Assembly: GCA_017516865.1 (NCBI GenBank)
Contig: JAFXAU010000009.1
Span: 151,498-215,497, forward strand
Length of the DNA: 64,000 bases
Reading direction: 5' to 3'
Source: Bacteroidales bacterium
GTDB lineage: Bacteria > Bacteroidota > Bacteroidia > Bacteroidales > UBA1715
Of this stretch, positions 8,201 to 33,902 are shown piece by piece. The translations under genes and the position numbers were made by a program. Every line of letters begins with the position of its first letter. The first letter of the stretch is position 1. The notes beneath the pieces were generated by a model. It worked only from the letters and a program-made list of their open reading frames with translations. It had not been told where the DNA came from and made no database searches.

Positions 8201-8356
8201 CAACGAGTAATCGTATATGATGTAGTCGGTGGTATTGTTATGCAAAAACAAAACGTAACTCAAATTGATGTGTCCAACTTACTGGCAGGAAACTACTTTG
8301 TACAAATAGAGACAGACAAAGGCACGTTTACCAAACCGATAGTTGTGGTGAAATAG
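5300..8356 (+). CDS. Scaffoldin-like T9SS surface protein: signal peptide, PKD-like x2, three cohesin-like modules alternating with Ig-like modules, PKD-like x2, T9SS CTD
   Basis: Signal peptide MRYRNKIGITIVALLLAVLGSYAQ. Three ~120-130-aa modules lie at nt 5927-6316, 6542-6905 and 7139-7505. They show a cohesin-like pattern (e.g. AGLVTIPVRVSD..ISDVHFCLTYDTAVVRYVDIE...LALQFEVVGQGES). Between them are Ig-like modules (GGTWQGDGISGSTFNSATVGVGKHTLTYVV). Four VC..Y.......Y.W.VP....V.GQGTN.I.V.F....G...V.A.N.EGC modules flank the core. The C-terminus (LNVYPLPVKHILTIS...AGNYFVQIETDKGTFTKPIVVVK) is a typical type A T9SS sorting domain. Confidence 0.65.
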   Translation: MRYRNKIGITIVALLLAVLGSYAQNLEITGSSIDCRESSSSVDYLPYGILRPGAHSTYEWSIEGGADFITSNTATGTGVMVRFLEGTGTVTIRVTERIGSRIVGTTVKEISKNIRPTMVSVDGPTGWGAVCLEQKGVVYTATANNAQSFTWTVPEGNTLVSQSGNTAVVDFHGVAGNMVVCAQNGEGCVSHNCLHPYIAPIGECQQPQQCEMVISAENKSVCQNDVFDVALSMSDVECYCVNSMFFSVRYNSSVLQLEGVNSQSNFVRFKDCGNGMVSAIISVENGTGFRGGNIGTLRFKALESGTSDITPISFEYTGSGDSEEPTVTFVNGVVTVAPSTEVQISPTVSEIAKGETVALQATPTGGTWQGDGISGSTFNSATVGVGKHTLTYVVAPNGETCGGRDSIEITVTNDCNFRFILPDTVLCEPAGLVTIPVRVSDICACISDVHFCLTYDTAVVRYVDIESNNKTVYVRENGNVLSAIVSNNAPVTTEFLALQFEVVGQGESNMTLFVNDILKDGNLRSYTATGTITIGQSPVVQIDVPQTFYEQDTAIALTAIPANGQWVGDGITDGNYFNPSLAGIGTHTLKYVVSAYDDYCAAEDSVQIEVKSNCRWEVLQQEYDAFVGDTIQFEFGLNNPANCGCVSSLIATIQYDNEKLQFNGDTSYSYSQSGLTIKSCEGGIRLLVSSTDMLPISLPFVAKAEGNAIVQAEVVDFIGNIRDVLSAQSNVQIEEKVVRTIEIAGARVVCKSNQWEDYHWLTYTIAEPASNAQYSWTVTGNAQIGTQTANSVQIHFLSGMQTVSLTAREIVNGEQTAETTIVIEQRIRPNNLNYQYLGDNNVCNTAENVIYTVSGDASEYHWEVPANAEIVSGQGTNQIAVNFNRTSGNIVVYAQNGEGCLSYGGVYFPVNLNGDCPPQEYSLKSLTLSDEEQDGNEGTSLDVAETYLNVYPLPVKHILTISTNATVQRVIVYDVVGGIVMQKQNVTQIDVSNLLAGNYFVQIETDKGTFTKPIVVVK

Positions 8357-8384
8357 AAAAAAACATTTAACCTTGTTCAAAAAA

Positions 8385-8415
8385 ACAGGCAGAAGATAAA
8401 TCTGTCTGTTTTTTA
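8385..8415 (+). terminator. Rho-independent terminator after the scaffoldin-like gene
   Basis: Stem acaggcaga/tctgtctgt (one G-T pair), loop agataaa, followed by a run of six T. Confidence 0.6.
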
Positions 8416-8437
8416 TGGTAGGTTGTCATTCTCTGTT

Positions 8438-8499
8438 CGGTCGGATTTGCAATCCGACCGTAACGAATACCAGCATTTTCTGTCTTCAGCAACAGAAAA
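8438..8499. repeat. REP-like element: type 1 palindrome plus type 4 hairpin
   Basis: The type 1 palindrome cggtcggatt-tgc-aatccgaccg (8438-8460) has a 10-bp stem. It is followed by the tail taacgaataccagcattttc, which is shared with the copies at 18165 and 19942. Then comes the hairpin ttttctgt-cttcagca-acagaaaa (8476-8499). Confidence 0.8.
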
Positions 8500-8922
8500 T
8501 CTGTTCCATTTCTTTCGGCGGCGAAAGAAACGGAACCCAAAGAAAGGCCGCCGACGGACCCGCTCGGCTAAAAATCAATGTCGTTCACTAAAGGCGTTGA
8601 AGTGCCACGCTATCGTTATACTACCCATAACGTACTAAGGCACCAACGCCTTTTTAACGTTCTCTCCATTGATTTTTTTAACGCCGCCCGGCTCAGTCGG
8701 ACTGTCGTGCTGACAAATGTTTTCGTTTTGTGTAACAAAGAAGTACTATTTTCCACCAAACAATAGCGTGGCGACTTTGCAGATGAGCGTTAAAAATTTC
8801 TTTGAATGAAGCGTTAAGAACTCTCGGCTTGGCGGCGAGGCTTTGTGGGGGGCGCCATCCCCGAGAGTTTAGCGGAATGAGAAGAAATTTAGCGAAGATG
8901 CAGCGTCGCCGGCGTTCTTTGG

Positions 8923-9050
8923 TTACTTTCTGTCGCTGAAGACAGAAAGTAACAGAACAAAATGGAACAGAATAAATATGCTATATCTGTTGCGGTCGGA
9001 GGTCGGATTACAAATCCTCATGCACGCAGCGGCTGGATTACAAATCCAGC
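8923..9050. repeat. REP-like cluster: type 4 hairpin plus two ggattacaaatcc palindromes
   Basis: ttactttctgtc-gctgaa-gacagaaagtaa (8923-8952) is a perfect 12-bp stem. ggattacaaatcc lies at 9005-9017 and gctggattacaaatccagc at 9032-9050. Confidence 0.8.
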
Positions 9051-9113
9051 CGAACTGGAGAAGAATTTTAATAAAAAAAAGGAGATTTTTTCAATCTCCT
9101 TTTTTTGTTCTCA

Positions 9114-10304
9114 TCATTTCGTAATCATCACGTTATATCCTTTCGAATCAATACGCACAATATATTGCCCTACCGAAAGTGGCAAAGAAAATGAATCTTC
9201 ATCAACTTTGCGAGAAAAAATCAATTTCCCATCAATCGTAAAAATCGAAACGTGAGATTTTTTTACATGTTCAAAATGAATTTCTCCATTTTTCATAGAA
9301 AAAATCGGAGTTGAAAAATTTTCCGTAAAAGACACTCCGGATACCGTTCCCGTAATAACTTCCGTTGCATAATACGCAACATAACCGTGCGTTTCTGCAC
9401 CAATTTGAATATCAAGATTGCTGTTGTTGTTTACTTTTTTGAGCGATTCACAAAAATAAAAAGCCTTATCGTCAATCAAAGTCAAACTACTTGGCAACGT
9501 TACAGATGAAAGCAACGAACAATGACTAAAAGCATAACTTCCAATCGTTTTTAAACCATTGTTTAATGTTATTTTAGACAAACATTCACAACTGGAAAAT
9601 GCGGAATTCCCAATAGTTTGCAAAGAAGCCGGAAATTCTATTTCTTGCAAAGAAGAACAAGAACTAAAAGCATCTCTTTCAATAGAAGATACTCGATTTC
9701 CCATAACTACATTGTCCAACCAAATACAATTATTAAACGCACCATCTTTAATCGTCGTAACACTTTCTGGTATAATTACTTCTGTAATATTACAAGACTG
9801 AAAAGCCGAACTCGGTATTGTTGTAATTCCAGAATAAACCTCGATACTTCCACTTACTGCTCGTGGCACAAAAAACAAACTCAACGGATTTCGTTTATAC
9901 ATAACTTTATCATACATGAAAAAAGTCGAATTTCCTTCATCAATGTAAATTGTATGCAACGAATTACAAAGGGTAAACACTCCTGTACCAAATTCCGTAA
10001 CCGTGGCAGGAATTACTAAAATTTCCAACAATTTACTACCAATCAACGCATCATCATCAAATCCAATAACGGTATAAGTGTCGCCCTCATACACAACCGT
10101 TTCGGGAACATTGAGAATTCCTACATATTGTTCCTCTCCGGTGTAGTCATACATCCAATCATCTTCAGCTCCTTTATACGTTACTTTTGCCGTAAAATTT
10201 GTTTTATCAAAATTATAATAAATCCCATTAACTGACGTTTCTGACGCAACAATGGAAAATACATAACAAAAAGTAAATACTACTAAAAAACAAAATCTTT
10301 TCAT
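9114..10304 (-). CDS. BspA-type leucine-rich repeat protein with T9SS C-terminal sorting domain
   Basis: Signal peptide MKRFCFLVVFTFCYVFSIVA. Repeated ~23-aa units are of the form IP.SVT.I...AF..C..L..I. The C-terminal ~70 aa (HVSIFTIDGKLIFSRKV...GQYIVRIDSKGYNVMITK) are CTD-like. Confidence 0.75.
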   Translation of the reverse strand: MKRFCFLVVFTFCYVFSIVASETSVNGIYYNFDKTNFTAKVTYKGAEDDWMYDYTGEEQYVGILNVPETVVYEGDTYTVIGFDDDALIGSKLLEILVIPATVTEFGTGVFTLCNSLHTIYIDEGNSTFFMYDKVMYKRNPLSLFFVPRAVSGSIEVYSGITTIPSSAFQSCNITEVIIPESVTTIKDGAFNNCIWLDNVVMGNRVSSIERDAFSSCSSLQEIEFPASLQTIGNSAFSSCECLSKITLNNGLKTIGSYAFSHCSLLSSVTLPSSLTLIDDKAFYFCESLKKVNNNSNLDIQIGAETHGYVAYYATEVITGTVSGVSFTENFSTPIFSMKNGEIHFEHVKKSHVSIFTIDGKLIFSRKVDEDSFSLPLSVGQYIVRIDSKGYNVMITK

Positions 10305-10507
10305 ACGTAATTATTTTTTATAATGATTGATTTTTTTCAAAAATAAAATTGTCCCTCTTTGGTATTCTCTATAAAATTTTAATCTTTTAAAACTTTCGCA
10401 GATTCGTAAAATTCATTATCTACGTACAAAAATAAACAAAAATTCTCTAACGTTCCAAAATATTGAAATTTAATACAAATTCCTTTGAATATCTGGTATT
10501 TTATTTT

Positions 10508-10750
10508 CTAAACGTTTATCCCATCTTGAAAGTTGATTACAATAAACGCTTCACCAAACAAATCTTTTCGCAACACTTCATCATTTTTTATTGCTTCTGC
10601 ATAAGAACCACATGCCAGAATAACTACTTTAAATTGATTAAAAAAGTTTGTTTCTCGCATCCAATCTAATCTTTTCCTAATATTACTTTCAATTTCCTTA
10701 TGCTGTTCTTTTGTAAGATTCTTGTCATTAGGACGACATATCTCACACAT
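10508..10750 (-). CDS. Hypothetical protein, possibly a 5'-truncated gene remnant
   Basis: The listed 121-aa ORF begins inside a REP element (residues SSAGGRIANPTEQ are translated palindrome). The first Met outside the repeat is MCEICRPND at 10750. I recognise no family. Confidence 0.3.
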   Translation of the reverse strand: MCEICRPNDKNLTKEQHKEIESNIRKRLDWMRETNFFNQFKVVILACGSYAEAIKNDEVLRKDLFGEAFIVINFQDGINV

Positions 10751-10776
10751 TTCCGTGATAAAACAATCATTGAAAA

Positions 10777-10826
10777 GGCTGGATTGTTCGGTCGGATTTG
10801 CAATCCGACCGCCAGCCGAACTGGTG
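10777..10826. repeat. Nested REP-like element (type 1 palindrome inside a type 3 hairpin)
   Basis: The sequence is ggctggatt[gttcggtcggatttgcaatccgaccg]ccagccgaactgg. The copy at 9031-9058 reads ggctggatt[acaaat]ccagccgaactgg. The type 1 unit therefore occupies the loop position of a type 3 unit. Confidence 0.75.
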
Positions 10827-10963
10827 TTGATTGAAATTAAATAAAACCAGATAACTATATTATTATAGTTCATTTCAATGAGAACGACTATCTTTATGCC
10901 CAGATATGCATAAGATACTCTTTGGTGACATATGATTACTTTTTCAACAGATAGAAGAATAAG

Positions 10964-11305
10964 ATGAATATAGAGGATTATCGTGAGTACTGCCTGTCGT
11001 TGGGTTCAGACGTGGAAGAGAAATTACCTTTCACAGCTTTACAGTATGCTTCTGGTGTTTTGGTTTTTTACGTGCACGGTCACATGTTTTCTTTTTTCGA
11101 TTGCGATAATTTCAGCATAGTCACTCTCAAATGTCAACCAGATCGGATAGAAGAACTGAAAGCAAAGTATAGTTGCATTGGCAAACCATTCAATCTGTCA
11201 ACTAAGTATTGGATAGGTGTAGACGCAAATACAGCTCCCGATGCACTCCTTCAGGAACTTACACGCAACTCTTACGAGATTGTAAAAGCAAAATACAAGA
11301 AATAA
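10964..11305 (+). CDS. YjbR/MmcQ family DNA-binding protein
   Basis: 113 aa. The N-terminal IEDYREYCLSLGSDVEEKLPF and the overall length and pattern are typical of YjbR/MmcQ (PF04237-like). Confidence 0.7.
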   Translation: MNIEDYREYCLSLGSDVEEKLPFTALQYASGVLVFYVHGHMFSFFDCDNFSIVTLKCQPDRIEELKAKYSCIGKPFNLSTKYWIGVDANTAPDALLQELTRNSYEIVKAKYKK

Positions 11306-11322
11306 AAATTGACATACGCAGA

Positions 11323-11363
11323 TTTTCTGTTCGGGCGGATTTGCAATCCGACCGAACAGAAAA
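11323..11363. repeat. Extended REP-like palindrome (19-bp arms), terminator-like
   Basis: ttttctgttcgggcggatt-tgc-aatccgaccgaacagaaaa with one mismatch. It lies 18 nt after the yjbR-like stop codon. Confidence 0.8.
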
Positions 11364-11551
11364 GTGTACCATTATTTCTTTACGGCATAAATTCGATATA
11401 TATGCCAAATTTTTCTATCTTTAGGAAAAGAATTATTGTTTTTTTCCTATTTTTACACCAATGCCTATTCAACAAAATAGGCTGATTAGAAATTAAAGTG
11501 GTCTTTCCAATATTATTAAAACTAAAGAGGAATTTTTAATAAAAGGTGTGT

Positions 11552-12067
11552 ATGAAAGATGTATTAAAAGACTTTGTGAAAAAACTTTTGGCAGAAAAAC
11601 ATTATTCTGAAGAAGTTCAAAATATTTTGAACCTAATTTTGAATGATAAGATGTTTTTCCCTGAAATAAAATCAATTATTGATAAAAGTTCATCTGACAA
11701 GATAGAAATCAAAAAGGAACTTGCCAATGTAGTATATGACTATATTGAATTGTGTTTGGAAGATGGTCTTGTAACAAAAGAAGAATTTACAACGGTAAAA
11801 AAAATGAGATTGTTTTTTGACATCGAAGAAGGTGATTCTTATAAATTTGGCTTAAAAGCAAGAATAGAACAATTATTAACAATTGAACTTGATAAGATGT
11901 ATGCAGACAAGGTTGTTAATGAAGAAGAAGCACTTACAAAAGTTGAATTACAGGCGTTATTCGGATTATGTTATGAAGATTTCTATGAAATAGATAAAAA
12001 GATTGCCCAAAAAGCAATCAATAATGGAGCAAAAATGAAAGATTTAGGAACGTATTTTGATGTGTAA
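11552..12067 (+). CDS. Hypothetical protein, weak TerB-like signature; first gene of the 7-gene operon
   Basis: ATG at 11552 is preferred over GTG at 11546. The stretch LEDGLVTKEEFTTVKKMRLFFDI resembles the ADG..E...L helix pair of TerB-type domains. The stop is fused to the next start (TAAATG at 12065-12070). Confidence 0.4.
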   Translation: MKDVLKDFVKKLLAEKHYSEEVQNILNLILNDKMFFPEIKSIIDKSSSDKIEIKKELANVVYDYIELCLEDGLVTKEEFTTVKKMRLFFDIEEGDSYKFGLKARIEQLLTIELDKMYADKVVNEEEALTKVELQALFGLCYEDFYEIDKKIAQKAINNGAKMKDLGTYFDV

Positions 12068-13936
12068 ATGGCTTGGTCTTTTAGAAAACGGATAAAGATT
12101 GCTCCTGGCGTTCATATGAATGTAGGGAAAAACGGACCCAGTTTCTCTGTTGGCGGGAAAGGAATGAGTGTAACCTATGGAAAAAACGGAACATATTTAA
12201 ATTCAAACATACCAGGAACAGGATTGCGCAATAGACAAAAAATCGCTGATGGAAAAATAAATGATATCAACGCATCTCAATTTATGGAGAATAAAAAATC
12301 TGAAAACTCAGGATGTTTGCTTAATGCAGCTTGGCTTTTATCATGGATAATGTTGATAATTGTTACTTTACTTATATTTGCTTTTAGTTCTACTTGGGGA
12401 ATAATTTTTATTCTTGGTATAGTAGGATTAAAAATTGTAATCAACAAAAAGGAAGAAAAGCCTTCGGAGGAAGTAAAACAAAGTACACCTCTGAAAATGA
12501 ATATTTCTGATGAATTTGACAATAGAACTATTACGAAGGATTATTTTTTTGCTGTTACATCAGAAATTGAAAAAATAATTCTATTTCTTGATATTTTGTG
12601 CCAAGACCAAGATTTTTTTGTTTTTTTAAAAACCGTAAATGGTTTAAACATATCGATACAAGGAAGAACTGCAAAGACGGAAGAGCAACTGCGAGTTCTG
12701 ATTTTGACGGATATGACAAAATGTCTTGTGGAATTGGATCACAAAGTGAATGTAAAAGAGAAAGAATGTTTTGGGTTATTTTATTTCTTTTGTCGTACAA
12801 ACGGCATGGATAGATTTGAATACGATAAACTGGATTTTATCATGAAGAAAAATGTGTGTGAATCCGTAGAAGATGTAATACAACAAATAATTTCTTCTAT
12901 AAATATGAATCAACCTGTAGAGGAAATATTTTTGTTATCCACTCTATTAAAAGATTATAACACTGATTTGAGAGATAAATATCTTGTTATGTTATATCGT
13001 TATGCGTCCTTAACCGCAAAGGCTGATGGCGTTGTTAATGAGAAGGAATCAGAATGGTTGAGTAAAATACTAAGCTTGTCGGAGAAAAATGTTAACAATA
13101 CAACTGAAAATTCTTCGACAATTCAAAGGAGTAAGAATCAACAAAAACTACCACAACTAAAATCGTTAATAGGATTATTTTCGGTAAAAAAAGAAATAGA
13201 ATCACTAACAAATCTCATAAAAATCCAACAAGAAAGAGAAGCAAAAGGTTTGAAAAACTCCGCCGTTTCATATCATTGTGTATTCACCGGAAATCCTGGT
13301 ACTGGAAAAACAACTGTTGCAAGAATCGTGGCGAGTATATATAAAAAACTTGGTATTTTGAAAAAAGGACACCTTGTGGAAACAGACAGGTCGGGATTGG
13401 TCGCCGAATATGTCGGACAAACTGCAGTGAAAACAAATAAGATAATTGATAGTGCATTAGATGGTGTATTGTTTATTGATGAGGCATATTCTTTGATTTC
13501 GTCGAGTGAGAATGATTATGGGAAAGAAGCCGTTGCCACATTGTTAAAAAGACTAGAAGATAATCGGGATAGATTGGTTGTTATTCTCGCTGGATATTCA
13601 AATGAAATGCAACACTTTATTGATTCAAATCCTGGACTTCAATCAAGGTTTAACAGATATATAGAATTTCCTGATTACTCGGCAGATGAATTATATCAGA
13701 TCTTTGAAAAAAATGCAAAAGATTTTGATTATACAATTTCAGAAGAAGCAGAGAAGCGGTTGAAAGCATTATTAATAAATGAAGTTGCGAACAAAGATAA
13801 GAATTTTGGCAATGCCCGTTTTGTACGCAATTTATTTGAACGGACTATAGAACGACAGGCAAATAGATTGTCAAAAGAAAGCAATCTGACTGACAAAAAA
13901 TTAGCGGAGATTTGTTCTGTTGATATTCCAATGTAA
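12068..13936 (+). CDS. DUF4236 - 2 TM - TerB-like - AAA+ ATPase (CbxX/SpoVK-type)
   Basis: The N-terminus MAWSFRKRIKIAPGVHMNVGKNGPSFSVGGKGMSV..IPGTGL matches the DUF4236 pattern. A hydrophobic stretch LLNAAWLLSWIMLIIVTLLIFAFSSTWGIIFILGIVGLKIVI follows. LYRYASLTAKADGVVNEKESEWLSKIL is TerB-like. Walker A GNPGTGKT lies at nt 13289-13312 and Walker B is VLFIDEAYSL. The C-terminal half as a whole is CbxX/SpoVK-like. Confidence 0.75.
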   Translation: MAWSFRKRIKIAPGVHMNVGKNGPSFSVGGKGMSVTYGKNGTYLNSNIPGTGLRNRQKIADGKINDINASQFMENKKSENSGCLLNAAWLLSWIMLIIVTLLIFAFSSTWGIIFILGIVGLKIVINKKEEKPSEEVKQSTPLKMNISDEFDNRTITKDYFFAVTSEIEKIILFLDILCQDQDFFVFLKTVNGLNISIQGRTAKTEEQLRVLILTDMTKCLVELDHKVNVKEKECFGLFYFFCRTNGMDRFEYDKLDFIMKKNVCESVEDVIQQIISSINMNQPVEEIFLLSTLLKDYNTDLRDKYLVMLYRYASLTAKADGVVNEKESEWLSKILSLSEKNVNNTTENSSTIQRSKNQQKLPQLKSLIGLFSVKKEIESLTNLIKIQQEREAKGLKNSAVSYHCVFTGNPGTGKTTVARIVASIYKKLGILKKGHLVETDRSGLVAEYVGQTAVKTNKIIDSALDGVLFIDEAYSLISSSENDYGKEAVATLLKRLEDNRDRLVVILAGYSNEMQHFIDSNPGLQSRFNRYIEFPDYSADELYQIFEKNAKDFDYTISEEAEKRLKALLINEVANKDKNFGNARFVRNLFERTIERQANRLSKESNLTDKKLAEICSVDIPM

Positions 13937-13948
13937 AATGTATGTACT

Positions 13949-14791
13949 ATGGCGTCTGTTGAGAAATCACTAAAAATCAATTGTTTTATGGTTGTAATCG
14001 GTACCATAATACTAATTTTTTTACTATCAAATGAAACAAATGATACCGATAAATTTGATTTTACAAGTCCAGGAGCGAATATTCAACATAATGAAAAGAT
14101 AGAAATTCCCACAAAAATCAAAAATAGGACTGAACAAATCATAACTCATATAGGTTATACGGTAAGTTATAATTCCGATTGGAAAATCCCTAATTGGGTT
14201 GCATACGAACTAACAAAAGAAGAGGCAGAAGGCACTGTGTCACGTGCCACAGCGTTTGTCCCCGACCCCAAAGTCCCTTATGGTAAATCGGCGGAAACAT
14301 ATGATTATTCAAATTCTGGTTGGGATAGAGGACATATGGCTCCTGCAGGTGATATGAAATGGAGTGTTGATGCGATGAAAGAATCCTTTTACCTTTCAAA
14401 TATCTGTCCACAAAATAAGAATCTCAATAGTGGTATTTGGAATGATTTAGAGGTACAAGTACGAGAATTGGCACGTCAAAAAGGGAAAATCTATGTGGTT
14501 TGTGGTCCTATTGTGTCGAAAAATCCTAAAACAATCGGAACTAACAAAGTTGCAATTCCCGATGCTTTCTTTAAAGCGTTGCTACAAAATGATAATGAAG
14601 AATGGTGTGCTATTGCATTTATGTTTGCCAATGTTAGTGGACGAAAACCACTTGCTTCGTATGCTATGAGCGTTGAAGATTTGCAGGCTATTACAGATAT
14701 TGATTTCTTTCCTTCTTTACCCGATAGCATAGAACAAATGGTGGAAAGTAAAGTTGACTTCACGAAATGGAATATTAAATCAAATAAATAA
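13949..14791 (+). CDS. Membrane-anchored/secreted DNA/RNA non-specific endonuclease (NucA/Serratia-type beta-beta-alpha-Me)
   Basis: N-terminal anchor INCFMVVIGTIILIFLLS. Active-site motif DRGHMAP lies at nt 14324-14344. The downstream NICPQNKNLNSGIWNDLE matches the Mg-ligand Asn region of the family. Confidence 0.85.
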   Translation: MASVEKSLKINCFMVVIGTIILIFLLSNETNDTDKFDFTSPGANIQHNEKIEIPTKIKNRTEQIITHIGYTVSYNSDWKIPNWVAYELTKEEAEGTVSRATAFVPDPKVPYGKSAETYDYSNSGWDRGHMAPAGDMKWSVDAMKESFYLSNICPQNKNLNSGIWNDLEVQVRELARQKGKIYVVCGPIVSKNPKTIGTNKVAIPDAFFKALLQNDNEEWCAIAFMFANVSGRKPLASYAMSVEDLQAITDIDFFPSLPDSIEQMVESKVDFTKWNIKSNK

Positions 14792-14798
14792 TCGGAAT

Positions 14799-15464
14799 AT
14801 GAAAAGTAAATTCAAAAGCATATTAGGTGCATTGCTTGTGACGGCAACAGCCAAAGTTATGGCAAATCCCCAAATAGACGCTTCGTCTGTTGCTACACAA
14901 TCCGACAATAATAACGATAATAATGTGGAATTGAAAAAAGGGAAACAGAAACTTCTACAAAAATATATCATAAAATTCCATACTGATAATACTTACGGCA
15001 TTTTCGGGCACCGTAGCCATAGTTCCCATCGTAGTCACAGTTCTCATCGTTCTTCAAGTTCGGGAAGTTATTATTCTCCGTCAAGTAGCTCAAAATCTTA
15101 TTCGGGTAGTAGTTATTCGTCTGGCTCATCAAGTAGTAGTACATCATCCTCAAGCAAGACGACTACATCGAGTTCCTTTAAATCCTATAATGTCACTAAT
15201 GCTTCAGAAGCAAAAATTTGTAATTTAGGAGATAGAACAATTTCATTAGGTTCGTGTGGTACTGATGTGAAAGTGCTTGCCTCATTGTTGGTAAAACACG
15301 GTTATCTTGCCGAAAGTGATATAGAAACAAATGCCGATGGTTATACAATCTGTAATGCGGCAATGGTAACTGCCATCAAAAAATTCCAAAAAGATGCAGG
15401 ATTAACCGTTGATGGCTACGCAGGTGCTACGACAATAACAATGTTGAAGAATTGGAAGAAATAA
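14799..15464 (+). CDS. hxsA: His-Xaa-Ser repeat protein HxsA-like, with signal peptide, poly-Ser tract and C-terminal peptidoglycan-binding domain
   Basis: The start is moved to MKSKFKSILGALLVTATAKVMA (signal peptide). There are five consecutive HxS triplets, HRSHSSHRSHSSHRS (nt 15009-15053), followed by a ~45-aa Ser/Tyr-rich tract. The C-terminus GTDVKVLASLLVKHGYL...AIKKFQKDAGLTVDGYAGATTITML is PG_binding_1-like. Confidence 0.75.
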   Translation: MKSKFKSILGALLVTATAKVMANPQIDASSVATQSDNNNDNNVELKKGKQKLLQKYIIKFHTDNTYGIFGHRSHSSHRSHSSHRSSSSGSYYSPSSSSKSYSGSSYSSGSSSSSTSSSSKTTTSSSFKSYNVTNASEAKICNLGDRTISLGSCGTDVKVLASLLVKHGYLAESDIETNADGYTICNAAMVTAIKKFQKDAGLTVDGYAGATTITMLKNWKK

Positions 15465-15471
15465 AAGTAAA

Positions 15472-15783
15472 ATGGTTCAGTCATTTTCAATAGAAGTGAA
15501 TCGTAATGTGTACGATGACGTTGTTATAAGTCAAGTTGTGTATTGGCATTCCGATGACTTTGTAATTACTCGAAACGTGAATGATAATACGGAAACTATT
15601 ACATTACATCCGAGAGATATCCATATAACAAATGAAGAAAAAGAAAGAGTTCTACAACAATTCCAACAAGATTTGAATGATTTTAAATTACGGCAAATTG
15701 TAGCACAGGAAACAAAAGATATTCGTACTATTCTGTACATCAAAGCATTTGCAAACAACGATGATTTTGTAGATTATGAGTAG
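15472..15783 (+). CDS. hxsD: His-Xaa-Ser system protein HxsD-like
   Basis: 103 aa. The motif DLNDFKLRQ resembles the LLNDYxLRE signature that names TIGR03976. The position immediately before the two radical SAM genes also fits. Confidence 0.65.
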   Translation: MVQSFSIEVNRNVYDDVVISQVVYWHSDDFVITRNVNDNTETITLHPRDIHITNEEKERVLQQFQQDLNDFKLRQIVAQETKDIRTILYIKAFANNDDFVDYE

Positions 15784-17197
15784 TGCTTCGTATTATTTGT
15801 TGCCCTTCTATTTCCGACGGCTAAATCACAAGGAAATCCTTGTTAATGAAGTTGGGGATTATATAGTTGCCCCACAAGGGACTGTAGAACGAATAGTTTA
15901 TCGAAAGATAGAAGAAAAGGAAGACTTGTTTCACGATTTATTAGCCAACTATATTATCAGTCTAACACCAATTCCCGACCTAATAGATATATACGCAGTA
16001 AGATTACGAACAAAGAAATCGTTTTTAGATGGTTTTACAGCCCTGCACATATTTGTATTGACATTGCGTTGCAATCAGAATTGTGTTTATTGTCAAGCAT
16101 CAAGTCAAAAAGAAAATGCTTGTTACAAGGATATGCAAGTAGAAGATTTGAGAAAATCAGTAGAACTGATGTTTAAATCTCCTTCACAGCATCTGACAAT
16201 GGAATTTCAAGGTGGCGAGCCAACTCTAACACCTCATTTGATTCGAATTGCAGCGGAATATGCTTCGCAAATCAATCTAACTCAAAAAAGAGAACTCACT
16301 TTTGTCCTTTGCACGAATTGCGTAAATTTAACTGATGAGGTCTTGGAAATCTGTAAGCAGTACAATATTCTTATTTCAACATCGTTAGATGGACCTGCAA
16401 CATTACACAATCGCAATAGAGGTAAAAATGATAGTTATGAAAAAGTGATTGCAGGTATAGAAAAAGCCCGAACCCTTTTGGGTATGGATAAAGTTTCTGC
16501 TTTGATGACGACATCCATTGAAGCATTACAATACTCAAAAGAAATAGTCGATTCTTATATAGAAAACAATTTTCATAGCATATTTATTCGGGCGTTGAAT
16601 CCATATGGCTTGGCTGTAGAAAACACCAATTGGGAAGATTACAATTCTCGCTTTATAGATTTTTATAAAACAACATTGGAATATATTCTTGAAATCAACA
16701 AAAAAGGAGTATTCTTTGTTGAGGAATTTGCTTGTCTTGTTTTACGAAAAATACTGACACCATTCCCTATTGGTTTTGTTGATTTACAATCTCCTGCAGG
16801 GGTGATAAATAGTGTGATAGTCTATAATTATGATGGATATGTTTACGCTTCTGACGAATCCCGAATGTTGGCAGAAAAACAGGATTTTACATTTCGTTTG
16901 GGCAAAATAAGCGATACATATGAGAATATTTTCTATGGGGAGAAATCTCAAAAAATATCACAAACTTGGTCTAATGAGTGTCTTGCAGGCTGTTCCAATT
17001 GTTCATATCAGTCCTATTGTGGAGCCGACCCAGTGAGAAATTACTCCACACAGGGTGATATGTATGGACATCGCCCAACGTCATTGCTATGTAAAAAGTA
17101 TAAATCCATTATTGATTATATTTTTTTACTATTGATGGAAAGAGAAAACGAGGTTTTACCTATTTTTAAGTCGTGGATAAATAAAACTGATGCATAG
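15776..17197 (+). CDS. hxsB: His-Xaa-Ser system radical SAM/SPASM maturase HxsB-like
   Basis: CX3CX2C motif CNQNCVYC lies at nt 16070-16093. A GGEPTL motif is present. The C-terminal Cys cluster CLAGCSNCSYQSYCGADP...LCKKYK is SPASM-like. The gene overlaps hxsD by 8 nt. Confidence 0.8.
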   Translation: MSSASYYLLPFYFRRLNHKEILVNEVGDYIVAPQGTVERIVYRKIEEKEDLFHDLLANYIISLTPIPDLIDIYAVRLRTKKSFLDGFTALHIFVLTLRCNQNCVYCQASSQKENACYKDMQVEDLRKSVELMFKSPSQHLTMEFQGGEPTLTPHLIRIAAEYASQINLTQKRELTFVLCTNCVNLTDEVLEICKQYNILISTSLDGPATLHNRNRGKNDSYEKVIAGIEKARTLLGMDKVSALMTTSIEALQYSKEIVDSYIENNFHSIFIRALNPYGLAVENTNWEDYNSRFIDFYKTTLEYILEINKKGVFFVEEFACLVLRKILTPFPIGFVDLQSPAGVINSVIVYNYDGYVYASDESRMLAEKQDFTFRLGKISDTYENIFYGEKSQKISQTWSNECLAGCSNCSYQSYCGADPVRNYSTQGDMYGHRPTSLLCKKYKSIIDYIFLLLMERENEVLPIFKSWINKTDA

Positions 17198-18072
17198 TGA
17201 GAGATACCATTGACATACATTCAAATGACAATACTTTATTTGTTACAGGTCAATGTAACAATCGTTGTTTGATGTGTTGTCAGCCACCGACTAAAAAAGA
17301 CGATATTGATTTCTTTTATCAAAAAAATAAAAAAATTATTGAAAGTGCTCCCGAATCATTAAGTGTTATTGGCATTTCGGGCGGTGAACCTACATTGTTG
17401 GACGAGAAATTATTTATGTTGATTTCGCTTATTCAAAAAAAAATGCCAAATACATATATCCATATTTTGTCAAATGGACGTAAATTTTCCGATTGCACAT
17501 ACACTGAGAAATTTACATATCTTGCAAAAGAAAAAATCACTCTTGGAATTCCACTTCATTCAGATTCTGCCTTGATTCACGACAAAATAGCCGGAGTAAA
17601 AGGTGCTTATACCGAAACAATGTTAGGACTATACAATTTGGCGGCAAACGAAATGGACATCGAATTACGTATAGTATTGAACAAACAAAATTATTTTCGC
17701 CTGCCACAGATGGCTCGCTTCATATCAAAAAATCTTGTTTTTATTTCAAGTGTTGCTTTTATGGCGATGGAAGATATTGGATATACCATAAAGAATAGGG
17801 ATTTTATTTGGATTGAACCTATTGAGTATATTGATTATTTACAACAGGCAGTTCTGTTCCTGTCCCAATTTAATTTTGATGTTGCATTATTCAACCTACC
17901 GCTTTGTTTATTACCAAACGAAATAAAACCTTTTGCAAGAAAATCAATATCGGATTGGAAAAATACTTTTCTTTCTCAATGTAATAATTGTACATTACAG
18001 AAGGATTGTTGTGGACTTTTTTCGACTTCACAAAGTGTATATAAAGGACTAAAAACTATTAAAACAATATAA
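17197..18072 (+). CDS. hxsC: His-Xaa-Ser system radical SAM maturase HxsC-like
   Basis: The GTG start overlaps the hxsB stop (TAGTG). CX3CX2C motif CNNRCLMC lies at nt 17254-17277. GGEPTLL is present, and a C-terminal CNNCTLQKDCCG cluster follows. Confidence 0.75.
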   Translation: MRDTIDIHSNDNTLFVTGQCNNRCLMCCQPPTKKDDIDFFYQKNKKIIESAPESLSVIGISGGEPTLLDEKLFMLISLIQKKMPNTYIHILSNGRKFSDCTYTEKFTYLAKEKITLGIPLHSDSALIHDKIAGVKGAYTETMLGLYNLAANEMDIELRIVLNKQNYFRLPQMARFISKNLVFISSVAFMAMEDIGYTIKNRDFIWIEPIEYIDYLQQAVLFLSQFNFDVALFNLPLCLLPNEIKPFARKSISDWKNTFLSQCNNCTLQKDCCGLFSTSQSVYKGLKTIKTI

Positions 18073-18164
18073 AAATGAATAATTGGAGAAAAACAATATT
18101 TGAGATTGTAGAAACAGATAGAGAAACAACAGCCAGTAGGATATATGACAAAATAATGCTCCGT

Positions 18165-18385
18165 CTGTTCGGGCGGATTTGCAATCCGACCGCAACGAAT
18201 ACCAGCATTTTCAATGCGGGAAAACAACAAGCAGTAAATAAACACAAATCCAAAATGTGGGGCGTTGTTTATGTGGCGGATTACAAATCCTTATATTCAT
18301 AGCTGCTGGATTGCAAATCCAGCAGAACGAAGCAAATCCAGCAGAACAAGGTTACTTTCTGTTGCTGAAGACAGAAAGTAACAGA
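18165..18385. repeat. Composite REP-like element (types 1, 2, 3, 3-half, 4)
   Basis: Contains cgggcggatttgcaatccgaccg, gcggattacaaatcc, ctgctggattgcaaatccagcag and ttactttctgttgctgaagacagaaagtaa. About 165 nt are roughly 94 percent identical (by eye) to 19942-20109 in direct orientation. Confidence 0.85.
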
Positions 18386-18387
18386 AA

Positions 18388-18435
18388 AAGAATTTGCTTT
18401 TTCCGTAAATGTTTGTACATTAGCGCTGAAAAAAT
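18388..18435 (+). repeat. 48-nt cassette leader, copy 1
   Basis: aagaatttgctttttccgtaaatgtttgtacattagcgctgaaaaaat matches 19202-19249 at 45 of 48 positions. It ends 6 nt before an ATGGAA start codon, as copy 2 does. Confidence 0.7.
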
Positions 18436-18441
18436 CCAATT

Positions 18442-18612
18442 ATGGAAGATAAAATCATACTATCGGGCTTGACGCTGGCTCAAATACAGAGCAAAGCACA
18501 GTATATACTTGAAACAGAAGTGAAGCCACGTTCCGAGTTGTTTCGGATTCGCAAGCGAGAAGGTCGTTTAAGCAAAGAAGTAATGGATCTTATAAAACAA
18601 CAAAATGCCTGA
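18442..18612 (+). CDS. Small ORF (56 aa), candidate antitoxin/partner of the zeta-like kinase
   Basis: It is below the ORF-track cutoff. My translation is MEDKIILSGLTLAQIQSKAQYILETEVKPRSELFRIRKREGRLSKEVMDLIKQQNA. Its stop overlaps the next gene's start by 8 nt (ATGCCTGA). Confidence 0.45.
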   Translation: MEDKIILSGLTLAQIQSKAQYILETEVKPRSELFRIRKREGRLSKEVMDLIKQQNA

Positions 18613-19222
18613 ACTAACCATTATCGCAGGGTGCAACGGTGCCGGAAAATCCACATTCGCAAAATCATTTTTGCCAGCAAATGAAACCTCATTTGATTAC
18701 GATAGAAATTTCTTGGAATATTATAATTCATTGCCTGATAGCGAATTTCGCGACGCTTTTGCTCAAAAAAAAGTAAACGATTTGTTTCAATCCGAGATAG
18801 AATTTGCGTTAGCCAACAAACTGAATTTCTGTTACGAAACCAATTATGATGAATATCCATTGTATTGGGCTGAGAAGTTCAAAGAGCAAGAGTATTCTGT
18901 GACACTTGTCTTTTTCTGTTTGGAAAACACTTCGATTGCAACCGAACGTATTTTAATGCGTAAAGAGTTTAAAGGACATTTTATCGATAATAGAACCGTT
19001 GGCGAAAAATGGAAGAAGGGATATAAAAATCTTGATGAGACATTTCATTTTTTCAATAAAATAATTGTGGTTGACAACTCCGTGGATGATTGTATGTACA
19101 AAACACTTTTGTACATGGAACAAGATTCCGTTCAACTATTAACCGAATTACCCTCTTATTTTGCAGAACGTTTGCCAAAATTGTACGCAGAGGTTCAAAA
19201 AAAGAATTTGCTTTTCCCTTAA
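18605..19222 (+). CDS. Zeta-toxin-like P-loop kinase/ATPase (COG4185-type)
   Basis: Walker A IIAGCNGAGKSTF. The central FCYETN, the later RILMRKEFKGHFIDNRTV..KGYKNL, and VVDNS follow the zeta/COG4185 pattern. The 3' end runs into leader copy 2. Confidence 0.65.
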   Translation: MPELTIIAGCNGAGKSTFAKSFLPANETSFDYDRNFLEYYNSLPDSEFRDAFAQKKVNDLFQSEIEFALANKLNFCYETNYDEYPLYWAEKFKEQEYSVTLVFFCLENTSIATERILMRKEFKGHFIDNRTVGEKWKKGYKNLDETFHFFNKIIVVDNSVDDCMYKTLLYMEQDSVQLLTELPSYFAERLPKLYAEVQKKNLLFP

Positions 19223-19249
19223 ATGTTTGTACATTAGCACTGAAAAAAT
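19202..19249 (+). repeat. 48-nt cassette leader, copy 2
   Basis: Matches 18388-18435 at 45 of 48 positions and ends 6 nt before the ATGGAA start of the MNT gene. Confidence 0.7.
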
Positions 19250-19255
19250 ACTGTT

Positions 19256-19558
19256 ATGGAAACAAATACTCGCTATTTAGAAATATTGCAGGCAAACAAA
19301 TCATATCTGCAACAGCAGTTTGCAGTTGATTCGTTGGTCGTGTTCGGCTCGGTTGCCCGCAACGAGATGACCGAAGATAGCGATGTGGACATTTTCGTAC
19401 AAATGCCTCCTAAAATGCTCTTGGTCATAGGCATAAAACAGTATCTGGAATCCCTGCTAAATCGACCTGTTGACGTCGTTCGCGACCACCCCAATATGAA
19501 CCCATTGTTAAAGAAACAAATTGAAAAAGATGGAATTCGAATCTTTGGAGCAGCATGA
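19256..19558 (+). CDS. mntA: MNT-type nucleotidyltransferase antitoxin
   Basis: The motif GSVARNEMTEDSDVDIFV matches the Pol-beta NTase signature GS.AR....SD.D. Confidence 0.85.
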   Translation: METNTRYLEILQANKSYLQQQFAVDSLVVFGSVARNEMTEDSDVDIFVQMPPKMLLVIGIKQYLESLLNRPVDVVRDHPNMNPLLKKQIEKDGIRIFGAA

Positions 19559-19913
19559 ACTGGTAATTTCAATTCTTCAACAAATAAAGAAAGCCATTCT
19601 CGATTTACAGGAATGGAACAACGATGTTGTATCGATTGATGGTTATTACAACAATTCGTCAGGTATGCAAAAACTAGCGGCAAGTTGTATGCTGTTGGAA
19701 GCAATTGGAGAAGGTTTCAAGAAAATTGACTCAATAACAAATCAAAAACTTTTAATTGAATATGATTCAATTCCATGGAAAGAAATCATGGGTATGAGAA
19801 ATCATATTGCACACGGTTATTTCGATATTGATGCTGAATTGGTTTTATATACAATAAAGAACGACCTTTCTTCCTTGTTAAATGCCGTGGAGTTTTTTCT
19901 GAAAAAACATTGA
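19521..19913 (+). CDS. hepT: HepT/DUF86 HEPN toxin
   Basis: RNHIAHGYFDID matches the Rx4-6H HEPN motif. The gene overlaps the MNT gene by 38 nt. Confidence 0.85.
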   Translation: MKKMEFESLEQHELVISILQQIKKAILDLQEWNNDVVSIDGYYNNSSGMQKLAASCMLLEAIGEGFKKIDSITNQKLLIEYDSIPWKEIMGMRNHIAHGYFDIDAELVLYTIKNDLSSLLNAVEFFLKKH

Positions 19914-19941
19914 CAGAGACAAGGATAATTTCATATATTCT

Positions 19942-20109
19942 CTGTTCGGGCGGATTTGCAATCCGACCGTAACGAATACCAGCATTTTCAATGCGAGAAA
20001 ACAACAAGAAGCAAATAAACACAATTACAAAATGTGGGGCGTTGTTTATGTGGCGGATTACAAATCCTTATATTCATAGCTGCTGGATTGCAAATCCAGC
20101 AGAACAAGG
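19942..20109. repeat. Composite REP-like element (types 1, 2, 3), direct repeat of 18165-18345
   Basis: It has the same order of palindromes and spacers as the copy at 18165. It overlaps the 3' end of the lipoprotein ORF on the minus strand. Confidence 0.85.
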
Positions 20110-20363
20110 TAGAAGGATTTCTTTTCTGAACGCGGAAAACAGGTCACGAGTAAGTCGATGTAGTTTTTCGCGTAGACGAACTTTCCCGAGTCGATGGCTT
20201 TTTCGATGAGTTCCAGGTATTCCTGTTCGGAAAGTTGCACGTTTGGTTTTTGTGTCGGGATGGAATCTTGTCTGATTGTGTCGCATTGGTGTTCCGCTTC
20301 GGAACGTCCGCAGCCGACAAGAGAGGTTGCGAGCAACATTGCTGAAATTAAAATCTTTTTCAT
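20058..20363 (-). CDS. Small lipoprotein, hypothetical
   Basis: Lipobox MKKILISAMLLATSLVGC. The last ~17 codons are REP-element sequence. Confidence 0.5.
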   Translation of the reverse strand: MKKILISAMLLATSLVGCGRSEAEHQCDTIRQDSIPTQKPNVQLSEQEYLELIEKAIDSGKFVYAKNYIDLLVTCFPRSEKKSFYLVLLDLQSSSYEYKDL

Positions 20364-20427
20364 TTTGAATATGTAGTTAAATTTGTACCTTTAAGGTACG
20401 AAATTTTGGTGAATAAAACAAGAATAA

Positions 20428-20967
20428 ATGGAACGCATTGATAAATCATTTACAGTACAATGGTTGGGACCTTTTGATAAATTAGAAGGTTTGAATGATT
20501 ATTTTAAGGGTGAAAACGGTTTGGATAAAGGTTTGTTCAACTTTTATTATTTTGAAGCGAGAAAAACAATGCGTTCTAAACCTTGTTGTTATTTCGGCAT
20601 TCACAAAAAGAACGATGGAATAACCAAACGATTGACAAAAAGTCATTCTCATTACAAGGAAGTAAAGGATTTCAAATATGTAAATATTTGGATAGGAAGT
20701 TTAGGGCGAAAAAAAGACCAAACAATAGCTAATGTTGACCTTGTGGAGACATTATTTATTCGAGCTTATAAAGATATTGTATCTGAGAATGACAGAAAGA
20801 AAAAGTCGCTTCCTGCAGAAAACGTCACCGTCATCAACTATTGGTATGATGAAGGAAATCACCTAAAACATCGAAAGAAAAATGAAACTTGCGGATTTCA
20901 CGATGTGATTTGTTACGTAGAAAAAGAGTTTCATAAGGGGAATTTATCAAGAAAGAAGGATTTTTAA
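20428..20967 (+). CDS. Hypothetical protein with GIY-YIG-like motif spacing
   Basis: NFYYFEAR-x11-CCYFGIHKKNDGITKRLTKSH followed by DLVETLFIRAY. This resembles GIY-x(9-12)-YIG...R...H...E. It is pattern-level evidence only. Confidence 0.3.
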   Translation: MERIDKSFTVQWLGPFDKLEGLNDYFKGENGLDKGLFNFYYFEARKTMRSKPCCYFGIHKKNDGITKRLTKSHSHYKEVKDFKYVNIWIGSLGRKKDQTIANVDLVETLFIRAYKDIVSENDRKKKSLPAENVTVINYWYDEGNHLKHRKKNETCGFHDVICYVEKEFHKGNLSRKKDF

Positions 20968-21014
20968 TTGAGTCAATCTACGATAATCTTCACATCGGAC
21001 ACGGCAAGGGTCAC

Positions 21015-21078
21015 GGCTGCTGGATTGCAAATCCAGCAGAACAGCCGAACAAGAGAACAAGAAATCCAGCAGAACAAC
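21015..21078. repeat. REP-like element (type 3 plus half-copy)
   Basis: ctgctggatt-gca-aatccagcag (21017-21039), then aaatccagcagaac repeated at 21062-21075. Confidence 0.8.
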
Positions 21079-21296
21079 AGGAATCTCCGATGCAATAAAT
21101 ATGTATGGCAGACGGGCGTGTAAGAAATGTTATTGATAACTTCATATTGAATGCCAGTATAATTGAAAACGATCTGTGGATTTATTTAGGGAATTTTCTA
21201 TGTCTAAGGCAAATACACAGTAGAAAAAGGAAAATTTGTTTTTCAGCTTAAACTTGATTTTCAAAAGATTTTATATATTTACCCTCGCAGAAAAAA

Positions 21297-21617
21297 GTGA
21301 TTATGCAAAAAACTCAATTGCATTCAACAGAACAAATGAGCAATGTAATTGCCAATTATTTCAAAACACAACCTGTTTTGAAAGCATGGTTATTTGGTTC
21401 TTTTGCTCGTGGTGAGGAAACGGCGAAGAGTGATGTTGATATACTCGTGGTTCTTGATAACTCACAACCAGTTGGTTTAAAGTTTTTTAGAATGTGGGGG
21501 GATTTGGAACGGCTTCTTAACCGCAAAGTAGATTTGGTAACCGATGGTTCGTTGCTCCCATTCGCTGTTGAAAGTGCAAATCGTGACAAAAAACTGATAT
21601 ATGAGAGAACCGCTTAA
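21297..21617 (+). CDS. mntA: MNT-type nucleotidyltransferase antitoxin (second copy)
   Basis: GSFARGEETAKSDVDILVV motif. The start may instead be the ATG at 21303. Confidence 0.85.
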   Translation: MIMQKTQLHSTEQMSNVIANYFKTQPVLKAWLFGSFARGEETAKSDVDILVVLDNSQPVGLKFFRMWGDLERLLNRKVDLVTDGSLLPFAVESANRDKKLIYERTA

Positions 21618-21989
21618 AGATAAGAATAGACTGGAACATATTGTATCTGCCATAGACTTGATTCTTGGACGTGTAGAAGGTATGAAATATGAAGATTTTG
21701 TGGCAGACAAGTTGCTGTTTGGCGGAAAATAGTTTATCACACAATGATAATTGGCGAAGCAGCCTATAAACTTAGTCAGGAATTTAGAGAAAGTCACGCC
21801 CAGACGGATTGGCAAAGTATTGCTGATATGCGTCATCACCTTGTTCATGGTTATTATCAAGTTGACCCTTCTATAGTGTGGTCTGTGGTTCAAAATGAAC
21901 TTTCGCCGCTTCTGGAACAAGTAAAACAATATCTTGCAGAAACCAATTGGGAAGAATGGGAAAAACAAGAATCCCAAACAAAGAATTAA
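21601..21989 (+). pseudogene. hepT: HepT/DUF86 HEPN toxin, frameshifted
   Basis: ATG 21601 opens MREPLKDKNRLEHIVSAIDLILGRVEGMKYEDFVADKLLFGGK, which stops at TAG 21730-21732. The +1 frame continues IVYHTMIIGEAAYKL...MRHHLVHGYYQVD, which carries the HEPN motif. One extra A in the run at 21726-21729 would restore a single ~129-aa ORF. Confidence 0.7.
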
Positions 21990-22087
21990 CTACAAAATCA
22001 CTCCTTTTATTCCTTAGAATAATTGTGCATTATGCATTCGTCATTGTGCATTATTTACACCGCAGAACAAGGGAACAAGGGTCTAAA

Positions 22088-33793: not shown

Positions 33794-33812
33794 GCAAAGG
33801 TTTAAATGTTTC

Positions 33813-33850
33813 AACAAGCAGAATTCCTAACGGGGTTCTGCTTGTTTTTT
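33813..33850 (+). terminator. Rho-independent terminator
   Basis: aacaagcagaa / ttctgcttgtt forms an 11-bp stem with a 12-nt loop, followed by TTTTT. Confidence 0.7.
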
Positions 33851-33855
33851 CCCCA

Positions 33856-33887: not shown

Positions 33888-33902
33888 CAGAAAGAAAATG
33901 AT

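Follow-up and report, generated by a model that had tools for sequence, protein, structure and literature searches.

We analyzed a 64,000-nt stretch of DNA from a Bacteroidales bacterium (UBA1715; assembly GCA_017516865.1, contig JAFXAU010000009.1, positions 151,498 to 215,497 of the forward strand), hereafter the window, in which short palindromic repeats are scattered through an island of small gene cassettes between 8.4 and 22.1 kb. The explanation that we favor, and in which we have considerable confidence, is that these are repetitive extragenic palindromes (REPs), single or paired as REP doublets forming hairpins (REPINs), of a family that belongs to a REP-associated tyrosine transposase (RAYT, a Y1/HUH enzyme), and that their feet, together with the REPINs, would act as joints for the turnover of cassettes beside core genes. 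It is carried by the family identity of the repeats, the selection on their hairpins, their extragenic siting, their link to a RAYT in other genomes, their clustering in the island, and the fall of most homology breakpoints on their edges.

The repeat unit is 65 nt long and consists of hairpin A (SSATTRCAAATSS, or SSATT-RCA-AATSS), a linker (TATAYTC...GC), hairpin B (N4-GGATT-GCA-AATCC-N4', the outer stem of which varies yet stays complementary), and a GAACAG foot that reads GTTC on the opposite strand; in the stretches from other genomes, the core hairpin is usually the second of two. When the loop is oriented as GCA or ACA, the window copies share the layout N4-GGATT(G/A)CAAATCC-N4'-GAAC(A/T)(G/A), with the GTTC/GAAC foot 4 nt from the core in nine of the 12 copies. 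The canonical foot, GT[AG]G, was sought as well, and neither GTAG nor GTGG occurs in the repeats, which carry instead the GTTC foot listed for RAYT subclass 2.6. A REPIN joins a unit of subtype X on the minus strand to one of subtype Y on the plus strand, feet outward, across a 40-nt gap and over 170 bp in all, the same arrangement that flanks RAYT genes; the window has two, both of which fold as single-stranded DNA into a long hairpin. An earlier note on this DNA, made from the sequence alone, had described four related hairpin types, and all four are present as it wrote them. Type 1 (five copies) is hairpin B of X, type 3 (three copies plus a ggctgg variant at 9031) is hairpin B of Y, and type 2 (two to three copies) is hairpin A of Y; types 1 to 3 are thus indeed related, but as hairpins of one 65-nt unit rather than as separate repeats, while type 4 is another family. 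The GCATTTTCAATGC hairpins at 18205 and 19982, which are hairpin A of subtype X, had been overlooked. As a side observation, the loop of hairpins A and B on its 5-bp stem reads UUGCAAA or UUACAAA (e.g., 18308-18320) and resembles by eye the anticodon loop of tRNA-Cys(GCA) with A37 and A38, with no other tRNA feature.

The core GGATTNNNAATCC occurs 12 times in the window (at 8443, 9005, 9035, 10794, 11337, 18175, 18278, 18308, 19952, 20055, 20085, and 21022), against 0.08 copies expected from dinucleotide shuffles of the window; all 12 lie within 8443-21034, and the rest of the 64 kb has none. A covariance model built from 85 distinct units of other genomes, with zero window sequence, was scanned over the whole window with filters off and returned nine units (E<=4e-6), all within 8431-21046, the best match outside the island reaching 10.6 bits (E=1.8). 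All nine lie in the 10 intergenic regions of the island (3.0 kb within the 8.4-22.1 kb segment), compared with no model match in the remaining 50 kb of the window, whose 19 intergenic regions total 4.7 kb, which gives p~0.004 for the clustering when the units are counted as six independent sites. The confinement of the repeats to this segment, as first noticed, therefore stands. They had also been said to mark every cassette boundary, which does not hold for the zeta/MNT junction at 19222-19256 or for those at 10304-10508 and 20363-20428, where there is no repeat.

The hairpins are kept by selection, and it is their structure rather than the sequence of the outer stem that is conserved. Among the 85 units, each of the four outer pairs of hairpin B has undergone 15 to 37 double-sided changes, and 94% of the cells are paired, compared with 81% in shuffled units and no more than 61% once the pairing partner is shifted along; none of 500 shuffles reached the observed score. 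The hairpin core is uninformative in this respect because the units were retrieved by that core, which fixed it. DNA folds of the units have z scores of -4 to -10, and both strands of the hairpins fold equally well.

The link to a RAYT comes from other Bacteroidales; here and below, L numbers denote related or repeat-bearing contigs and stretches of other genomes or samples. Between inverted units, L052:1148-1684 encodes a 178-amino-acid protein that scores 96.1 bits against the NCBIfam model REP_Tyr_transpos (cutoff, 80 bits), matches Pfam Y1_Tnp, belongs to family NF047646 and not to the IS200 equivalog, and carries the motifs NHLH, WQ, and YIHQNP. Homologues lie in Bacteroides xylanisolvens (L045; 64% identity) and in L158 to L160 (protein P0011; 78% identity), and 3677 homologous proteins were found at E<=1e-10, some of them called RayT by their source. 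At three of the RAYT genes (L052, L045, and L158), a minus-strand unit ends and a plus-strand unit begins within ~15 nt of the start and stop codons, respectively. These three genes flanked by inverted units bear out the REP-like class that had been proposed for the repeats, together with the RAYT that had been suggested as its check.

The protein of L052 can be placed further by its motifs and its length, which match those given in Table 1 of Quentin et al. (2018; PMC6006769) for subclass 2.6 (NH[LIV]H, WQ, YIH[QN]NP, ~179 amino acids, Bacteroidetes), making it a TnpA-Y1 of subclass 2.6, or group 5 of Bertels; the same source ascribes to this subclass atypical secondary structures and no GT[AG]G. 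Table S1 of that paper gives the B. xylanisolvens RAYT GTTC-foot GGATTnnnAATCC hairpins, the repeats being entered as GTTC-CAGCGGATTTATAATCCGCTG and ATTC-AATCGGATTTGCAATCCGATTG, and has GGATT[GA]CAAATCC also in its Flavobacterium johnsoniae and Runella entries. On these sequence grounds, we assign the window repeats to the REP/REPIN family of an already known RAYT subclass. The element class is therefore not new, its hairpins having been tabulated in 2018 (PMC6006769). A literature search with the core sequence gave no match. With respect to subclass 2.6 REPs, the RAYT signature is the same and the listed B. xylanisolvens repeats match hairpin B and the foot described here; the source gives single hairpins found by manual inspection, and the 65-nt unit, the REPIN pairing, the tails, and the cassette-junction pattern are absent from the passages compared (PMC6006769). 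The host also differs, being an uncultured member of the Bacteroidales from rumen or gut. What is new here, as far as the compared passages go, is the anatomy of the two-hairpin unit, the REPIN, and the tails, together with a documented example, from two hotspots in rumen Bacteroidales, of cassette mosaics edged by REPs.

When a single genome from each species was scanned with the query GGATTGCAAATCC-N4-GAACAG, the repeat was found in at least 119 genome stretches, overwhelmingly of Bacteroidales (Prevotella, Bacteroidaceae, Muribaculaceae, Parabacteroides, and many rumen metagenome-assembled genomes [MAGs]), and a lineage-specific scan of JGI metagenomes yielded three loci. In the stretches of other genomes, 229 of 304 cores (75%) lie outside crude open reading frames (ORFs), though such ORFs cover 81% of the DNA, and the repeats are clustered in places, with ~7 units in L054 and L126 and arrays in L052 and L030. 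Among 2.9 million viral contigs there was one repeat match, and a plasmid search gave none. The core hairpin with the GAACAG foot is likewise multicopy in MAGs placed in other phyla, where it mostly stands alone GGGCNGGATTGCAAATCCGCCCGAACAG: one Armatimonadota MAG accounts for L007, L020, L077, L082, L099, L100, L102, and L117, further cases include L027 and others (MFD01112), and a 417-kb contig of a Nitrososphaerota (archaeal) MAG (L024) has six copies in 8 kb. No RAYT was found in the stretches from these other-phylum MAGs, which may reflect transfer of the system, convergence, or mis-binning.

The genes of the island, which spans 13 kb beside the core gene asnB, are as the earlier note gave them: a type IX secretion system (T9SS)/PKD protein, a BspA-type LRR protein, YjbR, a seven-gene operon (DUF4236-AAA, nonspecific endonuclease, and Hxs A/D/C/B), a zeta toxin, and two MNT/HepT pairs. 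Two of its ORFs are cut precisely at a REP edge. The ORF at 10508-10776 is a 121-amino-acid stump of a gene that is intact in L127, and the one at 20058-20363 (101 amino acids) is the 5' third of a 288-amino-acid gene in L155. A third, 75-amino-acid ORF (18075-18302), which starts right after hxsB in unique sequence, runs into a REPIN and has no Pfam match, could be what is left of the 5' part of a further truncated gene. The second HepT (21601-21989) is in two pieces of 43 and 81 amino acids beside an intact MNT partner and is probably a pseudogene. In the REP-bounded operon at 11546-18072, the radical-SAM genes of the His-Xaa-Ser (Hxs) set are co-oriented and tightly packed with the DUF4236-AAA+ ATPase, the nonspecific endonuclease, and a peptidoglycan-binding HxsA-like protein; the operon is a possible defense-type module.

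Comparison with related contigs placed nine homology breakpoints, six of which (10776/10777, 18277, 19940-42, 20106/20107, ~21043-60, and 22073) coincide with the edges or tails of units, sequence that amounts to ~6% of the island's intergenic DNA. Relative to L127, identity stops at 10776, the next base being the first of a nested hairpin, returns at 19941 in an X foot, and decays in a Y tail at ~21043-60. The breakpoint at 19940-42 was seen in two independent comparisons (L127 and L138); in the second (L138, L140 to L144), the leader and MNT/HepT block (19197-19942) is 97.9% identical with an identical MNT protein, lies at another locus beside trmD, and ends exactly at the REP foot of the window. 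Identity with L155 begins at 20107, the last base of a Y tail, and on the asnB side identity with both L054 and L147 begins at 22073 in a tail relic, where these two relatives have intact units. The zeta block shared with L147 begins where a Y unit has its left edge (18277) and ends inside a leader sequence (19236). The comparison with L072 breaks at ~8966 beside a type 4 hairpin, and L130, from another sample, is 100% identical from 8127 on with a different upstream sequence (L130:3164); the break at 8127 leaves the last 76 codons, encoding the T9SS sorting domain, of a 1018-amino-acid gene, so that it falls within this conserved C-terminal domain and away from any repeat.

The same cassettes recur elsewhere in other orders, or at a second site beside trmD. 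L147 reads Y, a 218-amino-acid ORF, REPIN, HicAB, Y with type 4, zeta, REPIN, Y, asnB; L128 reads REP, HicAB, REPIN, Fic, REP with type 4, trmD; L054 has ~7 units between asnB and GmrSD; and repeat-separated cassettes are also found in an alternative array of L127. REPINs and RAYT genes lie between outward-pointing feet, and the cassettes, placed between REPINs, face the feet. The comparison of strains that had been put forward as a check thus found cassettes present or absent between repeats and breakpoints on repeat edges. A 49-nt fragment of the interior of asnB (22518-22566; 88%) stands beside a REP unit ~3 kb from asnB at L126:185-233 and L147:2998-3046, apparently a small relic of a REP-associated rearrangement.

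The individual copies in the window add detail to this picture. The leftmost unit, an X on the minus strand at 8431-8500 (47.8 bits; E=1.6e-9; DNA fold z=-5.6), has the foot CTGTTC at 8433-8438 and the hairpin B core at 8443-8455, and its hairpin A breaks off at GCATTTTC, where an inverted type 4 hairpin is joined to it. At 8995-9059 (plus strand; 64.9 bits) lies a collapsed REPIN, in which an X foot and left arm are joined to hairpin A of Y (type 2, at 9005), with hairpin B ggctGGATTACAAATCCagcc coming next and GAACTG as the foot; an intact 170-bp REPIN occupies this site in L072, the collapsed form recurs at L147:4683 and L054:5097, and a duplicated left arm is seen at L147:5640. From such collapsed and partly duplicated units at junctions it is evident that the repeats recombine with one another. 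A double-foot REP hairpin, CTGTTCGG...CCGAACAG, at 11323-11363 between yjbR and the Hxs operon has 19-nt arms that are 95% complementary (DNA fold z=-9.8) and matches the model on both strands (41.5 and 32.5 bits). The first full REPIN, at 18163-18332, consists of X(-) at 18163-18227 (70.7 bits) and Y(+) at 18268-18332 (76.0 bits), gives a fold made up of a single long hairpin and hairpin B (z=-4.5), and has copies 92 to 98% identical in L054, L072, L127, L128, and L147; the second, at 19940-20109, consists of X(-) at 19940-20004 (71.2 bits) and Y(+) at 20045-20109 (77.9 bits), and both of its outer edges are homology breakpoints. A partial Y unit at 20988-21080 (plus strand; 33.7 bits) retains just hairpin B (21016-21040), after which come tails of repeated half arms and feet (aatccagcagaac, gaacaag). 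At 22062-22081 (plus strand), a Y-unit tail, cagaacaagggaacaagg, borders the asnB terminator region; it had been described as degenerate and is a true relic of a repeat tail, because the same ...cagcagaacaagg|gtctaaagc asnB junction in L054 follows intact units.

The copy at 10777-10826 had been read as one repeat inserted into another. Its sequence is exactly as described, with hairpin B and the GTTC foot of X placed between the two halves of a Y hairpin B, and it folds as two stacked stems (model, 36.8 bits; DNA fold, -17.2 kcal/mol, z=-5.1), the left edge being the point at which the neighboring gene is truncated. It substitutes for 6 nt (acaaat), however, and is not a clean insertion. The arrangement is identical in same-locus contigs of other samples (L130 and L135), the model matches the homologous site in L072, a 97% identical relative, and no other nested hairpin was found among ~300 hairpins elsewhere, leaving it unique to this locus. 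Judged by these sequences, it is a single old event in which insertion and illegitimate recombination are indistinguishable.

The mechanism that we envisage for cassette turnover can be set out in several steps: (i) a RAYT encoded elsewhere in the genome would act in trans; (ii) it would cut and rejoin single-stranded DNA at the foot of folded hairpins, by analogy with the E. coli TnpA-REP (structure PDB 4ER8, cited in PMC6006769); (iii) this action would seed and multiply units in tolerant intergenic DNA; (iv) feet and near-identical 170-bp REPINs would become preferred points for breakage and joining or for homologous recombination; and (v) single toxin-antitoxin (TA) or defense cassettes would then be gained, lost, and reshuffled at hotspots beside asnB and trmD. 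The assembly of cassettes by the repeats is a putative part of this scheme. The earlier note had proposed mobile or recombinogenic elements that assemble or delimit cassettes, which agrees with breakpoints on repeat edges and with cassettes that vary between repeats; the repeats may either assemble cassettes or merely have accumulated at a hotspot.

Several observations weigh against a causal role of the repeats. The window encodes no RAYT, and a RAYT gene is carried by two of the 119 listed repeat-bearing stretches (L006 to L124), a pattern in keeping with an enzyme that is low copy and has numerous target repeats. Three of the nine breakpoints lie elsewhere, at 8127 inside the T9SS gene, at ~8966 at type 4, and at 19197/19236 in the TA leader, and L138 has no REP to the right of its MNT/HepT cassette. 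The coincidence of breakpoints with unit edges is itself no proof of causation, because the repeats are the only sequence common to the contexts compared. In other genomes, Pfam analysis of 150 repeat-adjacent ORFs gave 162 families led by housekeeping genes (including gyrB, purA, dnaB, mutS, frr, and asnB), a broad mix from which we claim no enrichment of defense genes beside repeats. Nor is there a REP unit in two further segments of the window that are low in GC and look accessory. A general tie of the repeats to accessory DNA is not borne out by these neighbors and segments. The two segments, 32051-34975 and 41204-45619, have GC contents of 0.32 to 0.40, interrupt core genes, and encode a polyvalent-protein-type kinase (32.0-34.9 kb) and Fic with a DUF4988 protein (41.2-45.6 kb).

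The strongest alternative is that the REPs and REPINs are bystanders piling up in a tolerant hotspot, turnover being driven by type 4 hairpins, a 45-nt leader, or ordinary homologous recombination within flanking core genes; we regard this as a serious possibility, though we lean against it. The housekeeping neighbors, the repeat-free segments, and the junctions at 8127, 19197, and 19236 all speak for it. So does type 4, a separate hairpin family to which the covariance model of the unit gives no match, and which takes two covarying stem variants in the window and its relatives, always followed by CAGA. Compared with the empty site of L128, the leader and MNT/HepT of L138 form an 870-bp insertion with a full type 4 hairpin on one side and a 26-nt partial copy on the other (L138:5893-5930, L138:6775-6800, and L128:2672-2705), and type 4 therefore looks, by sequence, like an attachment or crossover site for some enzyme. 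Opposed to a bystander role are the six of nine junctions on edges or tails that make up so little of the intergenic DNA, the two genes truncated exactly at a unit edge, and the collapsed or partly duplicated junction units, which show that the repeats themselves recombine.

Type 4 hairpins occur in the window at 18352-18381 (plus strand; DNA fold z=-5.8), followed by CAGA and the leader of a TA cassette, and at 8923-8952, with an inverted copy at 8476-8501. The latter two bound a noncoding, hyper-palindromic element of ~480 bp (8476-8952) that is enclosed by the X(-) unit at 8431 and the Y(+) unit at 9059, themselves a REPIN-like pair, and the ends of which pair (fold z=-8.3 on the plus strand and -9.3 on the minus strand). 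The X unit with the left part of this element (8428-8741) is found twice in L065, and 8553-8747 once in L138, inverted, upstream of MNT/HepT; an Rfam search of 8300-9150 at an E-value threshold gave no family. The 45-nt leader, aatttgcttttNccNtaaatgtttgtacattagcRctgaaaaaat, lies upstream of the antitoxin/zeta operon at 18391-18435 (plus strand) and again upstream of MNT/HepT at 19205-19249, a direct repeat that L138 and L147 have as well. At the place that MNT/HepT takes up in the window, L147 has a truncated leader copy directly against a REP foot. The leader may serve both operons as a common promoter or leader sequence and may be a substrate for recombination.

A bolder form of our explanation would make the RAYT/REP system an integrase-free cassette platform and not merely a parasite, with the feet, and possibly type 4, as sites at which a Y1/HUH enzyme would string single TA or defense cassettes together beside the core genes asnB and trmD in this rumen lineage. 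We consider this improbable; if it were true, the system would be a functional analogue of the integron, built on the recognition of single-strand hairpins.

A role of the hairpins as terminators or RNA-level regulatory structures, such as mimics of the tRNA-Cys anticodon arm (loop UUGCAAA), is very improbable. The repeats do lie downstream of genes, their stems covary, and the loop looks by inspection like the tRNA-Cys(GCA) anticodon loop. A terminator scan, however, picked no copy of hairpin B, there is no T-run and the stems run into GAACAG or the linker, and canonical terminators at 8380-8414 and 9074-9106 adjoin the repeats, so that the suggestion that several of them terminate transcription falls. 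Units stand in both orientations relative to adjacent genes, both strands fold equally, and there is no Rfam or tRNA match: Rfam at the gathering threshold gave nothing meaningful for the window and three relatives, and an ARAGORN tRNA scan was empty. An att site derived from tRNA-Cys was also considered and rejected, with no T-arm after the hairpin and no ARAGORN match. Still less credible is an origin as miniature inverted-repeat transposable elements, with terminal inverted repeats and target-site duplications, of a DDE-type insertion sequence. In its favor, a REPIN is a short element of inverted-repeat form, and the element at 8476-8952 has inverted termini; but no junction inspected has a target-site duplication, the one protein found between flanking units is a Y1/HUH transposase, conservation of the outer stem is in structure and not in sequence, and no DDE transposase bounded by the same termini was found among 128 loci. 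That the hairpins are integron-like attC or other tyrosine-recombinase sites of an integrase-built array can be all but dismissed despite the single-gene or operon cassettes rich in TA pairs and the structured, covarying repeats between them, since this and a dif-like reading are contradicted by units in both orientations and by their flanking of RAYT genes instead, and since scans of proteins from the island and the rest of the window turned up no integrase, nor are GTTRRRY/RYYYAAC boxes visible in the repeats.

The repeats as RAYT-family REPs may also be set beside better-known systems. The REPs, bacterial interspersed mosaic elements, and REPINs of E. coli and Pseudomonas belong to RAYTs of groups 2 and 3, with the foot GT[AG]G. 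They share with the present repeats short extragenic palindromes with a conserved foot at the stem, inverted doublets, clusters mixing at least two subtypes, and a single-copy Y1 transposase gene flanked by inverted repeats; they differ in that the foot here is GTTC, the unit has two hairpins, and the inner stem and loop are near invariant across genera, the core being found in other-phylum MAGs as well. IS200/IS605 elements and their nonautonomous derivatives, the palindrome-associated transposable elements, likewise depend on a Y1/HUH enzyme that recognizes subterminal hairpins in single-stranded form and leaves no target duplication, whereas, unlike IS200/IS605, the enzyme here is of the RAYT branch (NF047646) and appears to be low copy while the hairpins are multicopy. 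Integrons resemble the island in their arrays of small, promoter-poor cassettes, many of them TA, in structured repeats recognized by shape, and in strain-variable content; here, by contrast, there is no integrase or attI, the repeats point in both directions, the cassettes lie between REPINs, and the enzyme class is another. In the Correia/dRS3 "minimal mobile elements" of Neisseria and the pdif modules of Acinetobacter plasmids, which use homology of flanking genes or XerC/D sites, small repeats also border strain-variable cassettes exchanged by recombination; the repeats here are RAYT-type REPs.

To conclude, REP elements are well studied in Proteobacteria and, to our knowledge, hardly at all in Bacteroidales, the dominant order of the gut and rumen. 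The locus described here is a clear and checkable case: the edges of REPs fall at the joints of a strain-variable TA/defense array and at two gene truncations. The repeats also appear to break metagenome assemblies at such islands: contig L155 ends within a repeat unit, and many RAYT-bearing contigs are short. If the link between repeats and cassettes is causal, REP/RAYT systems would shape the turnover of defense islands in gut bacteria.

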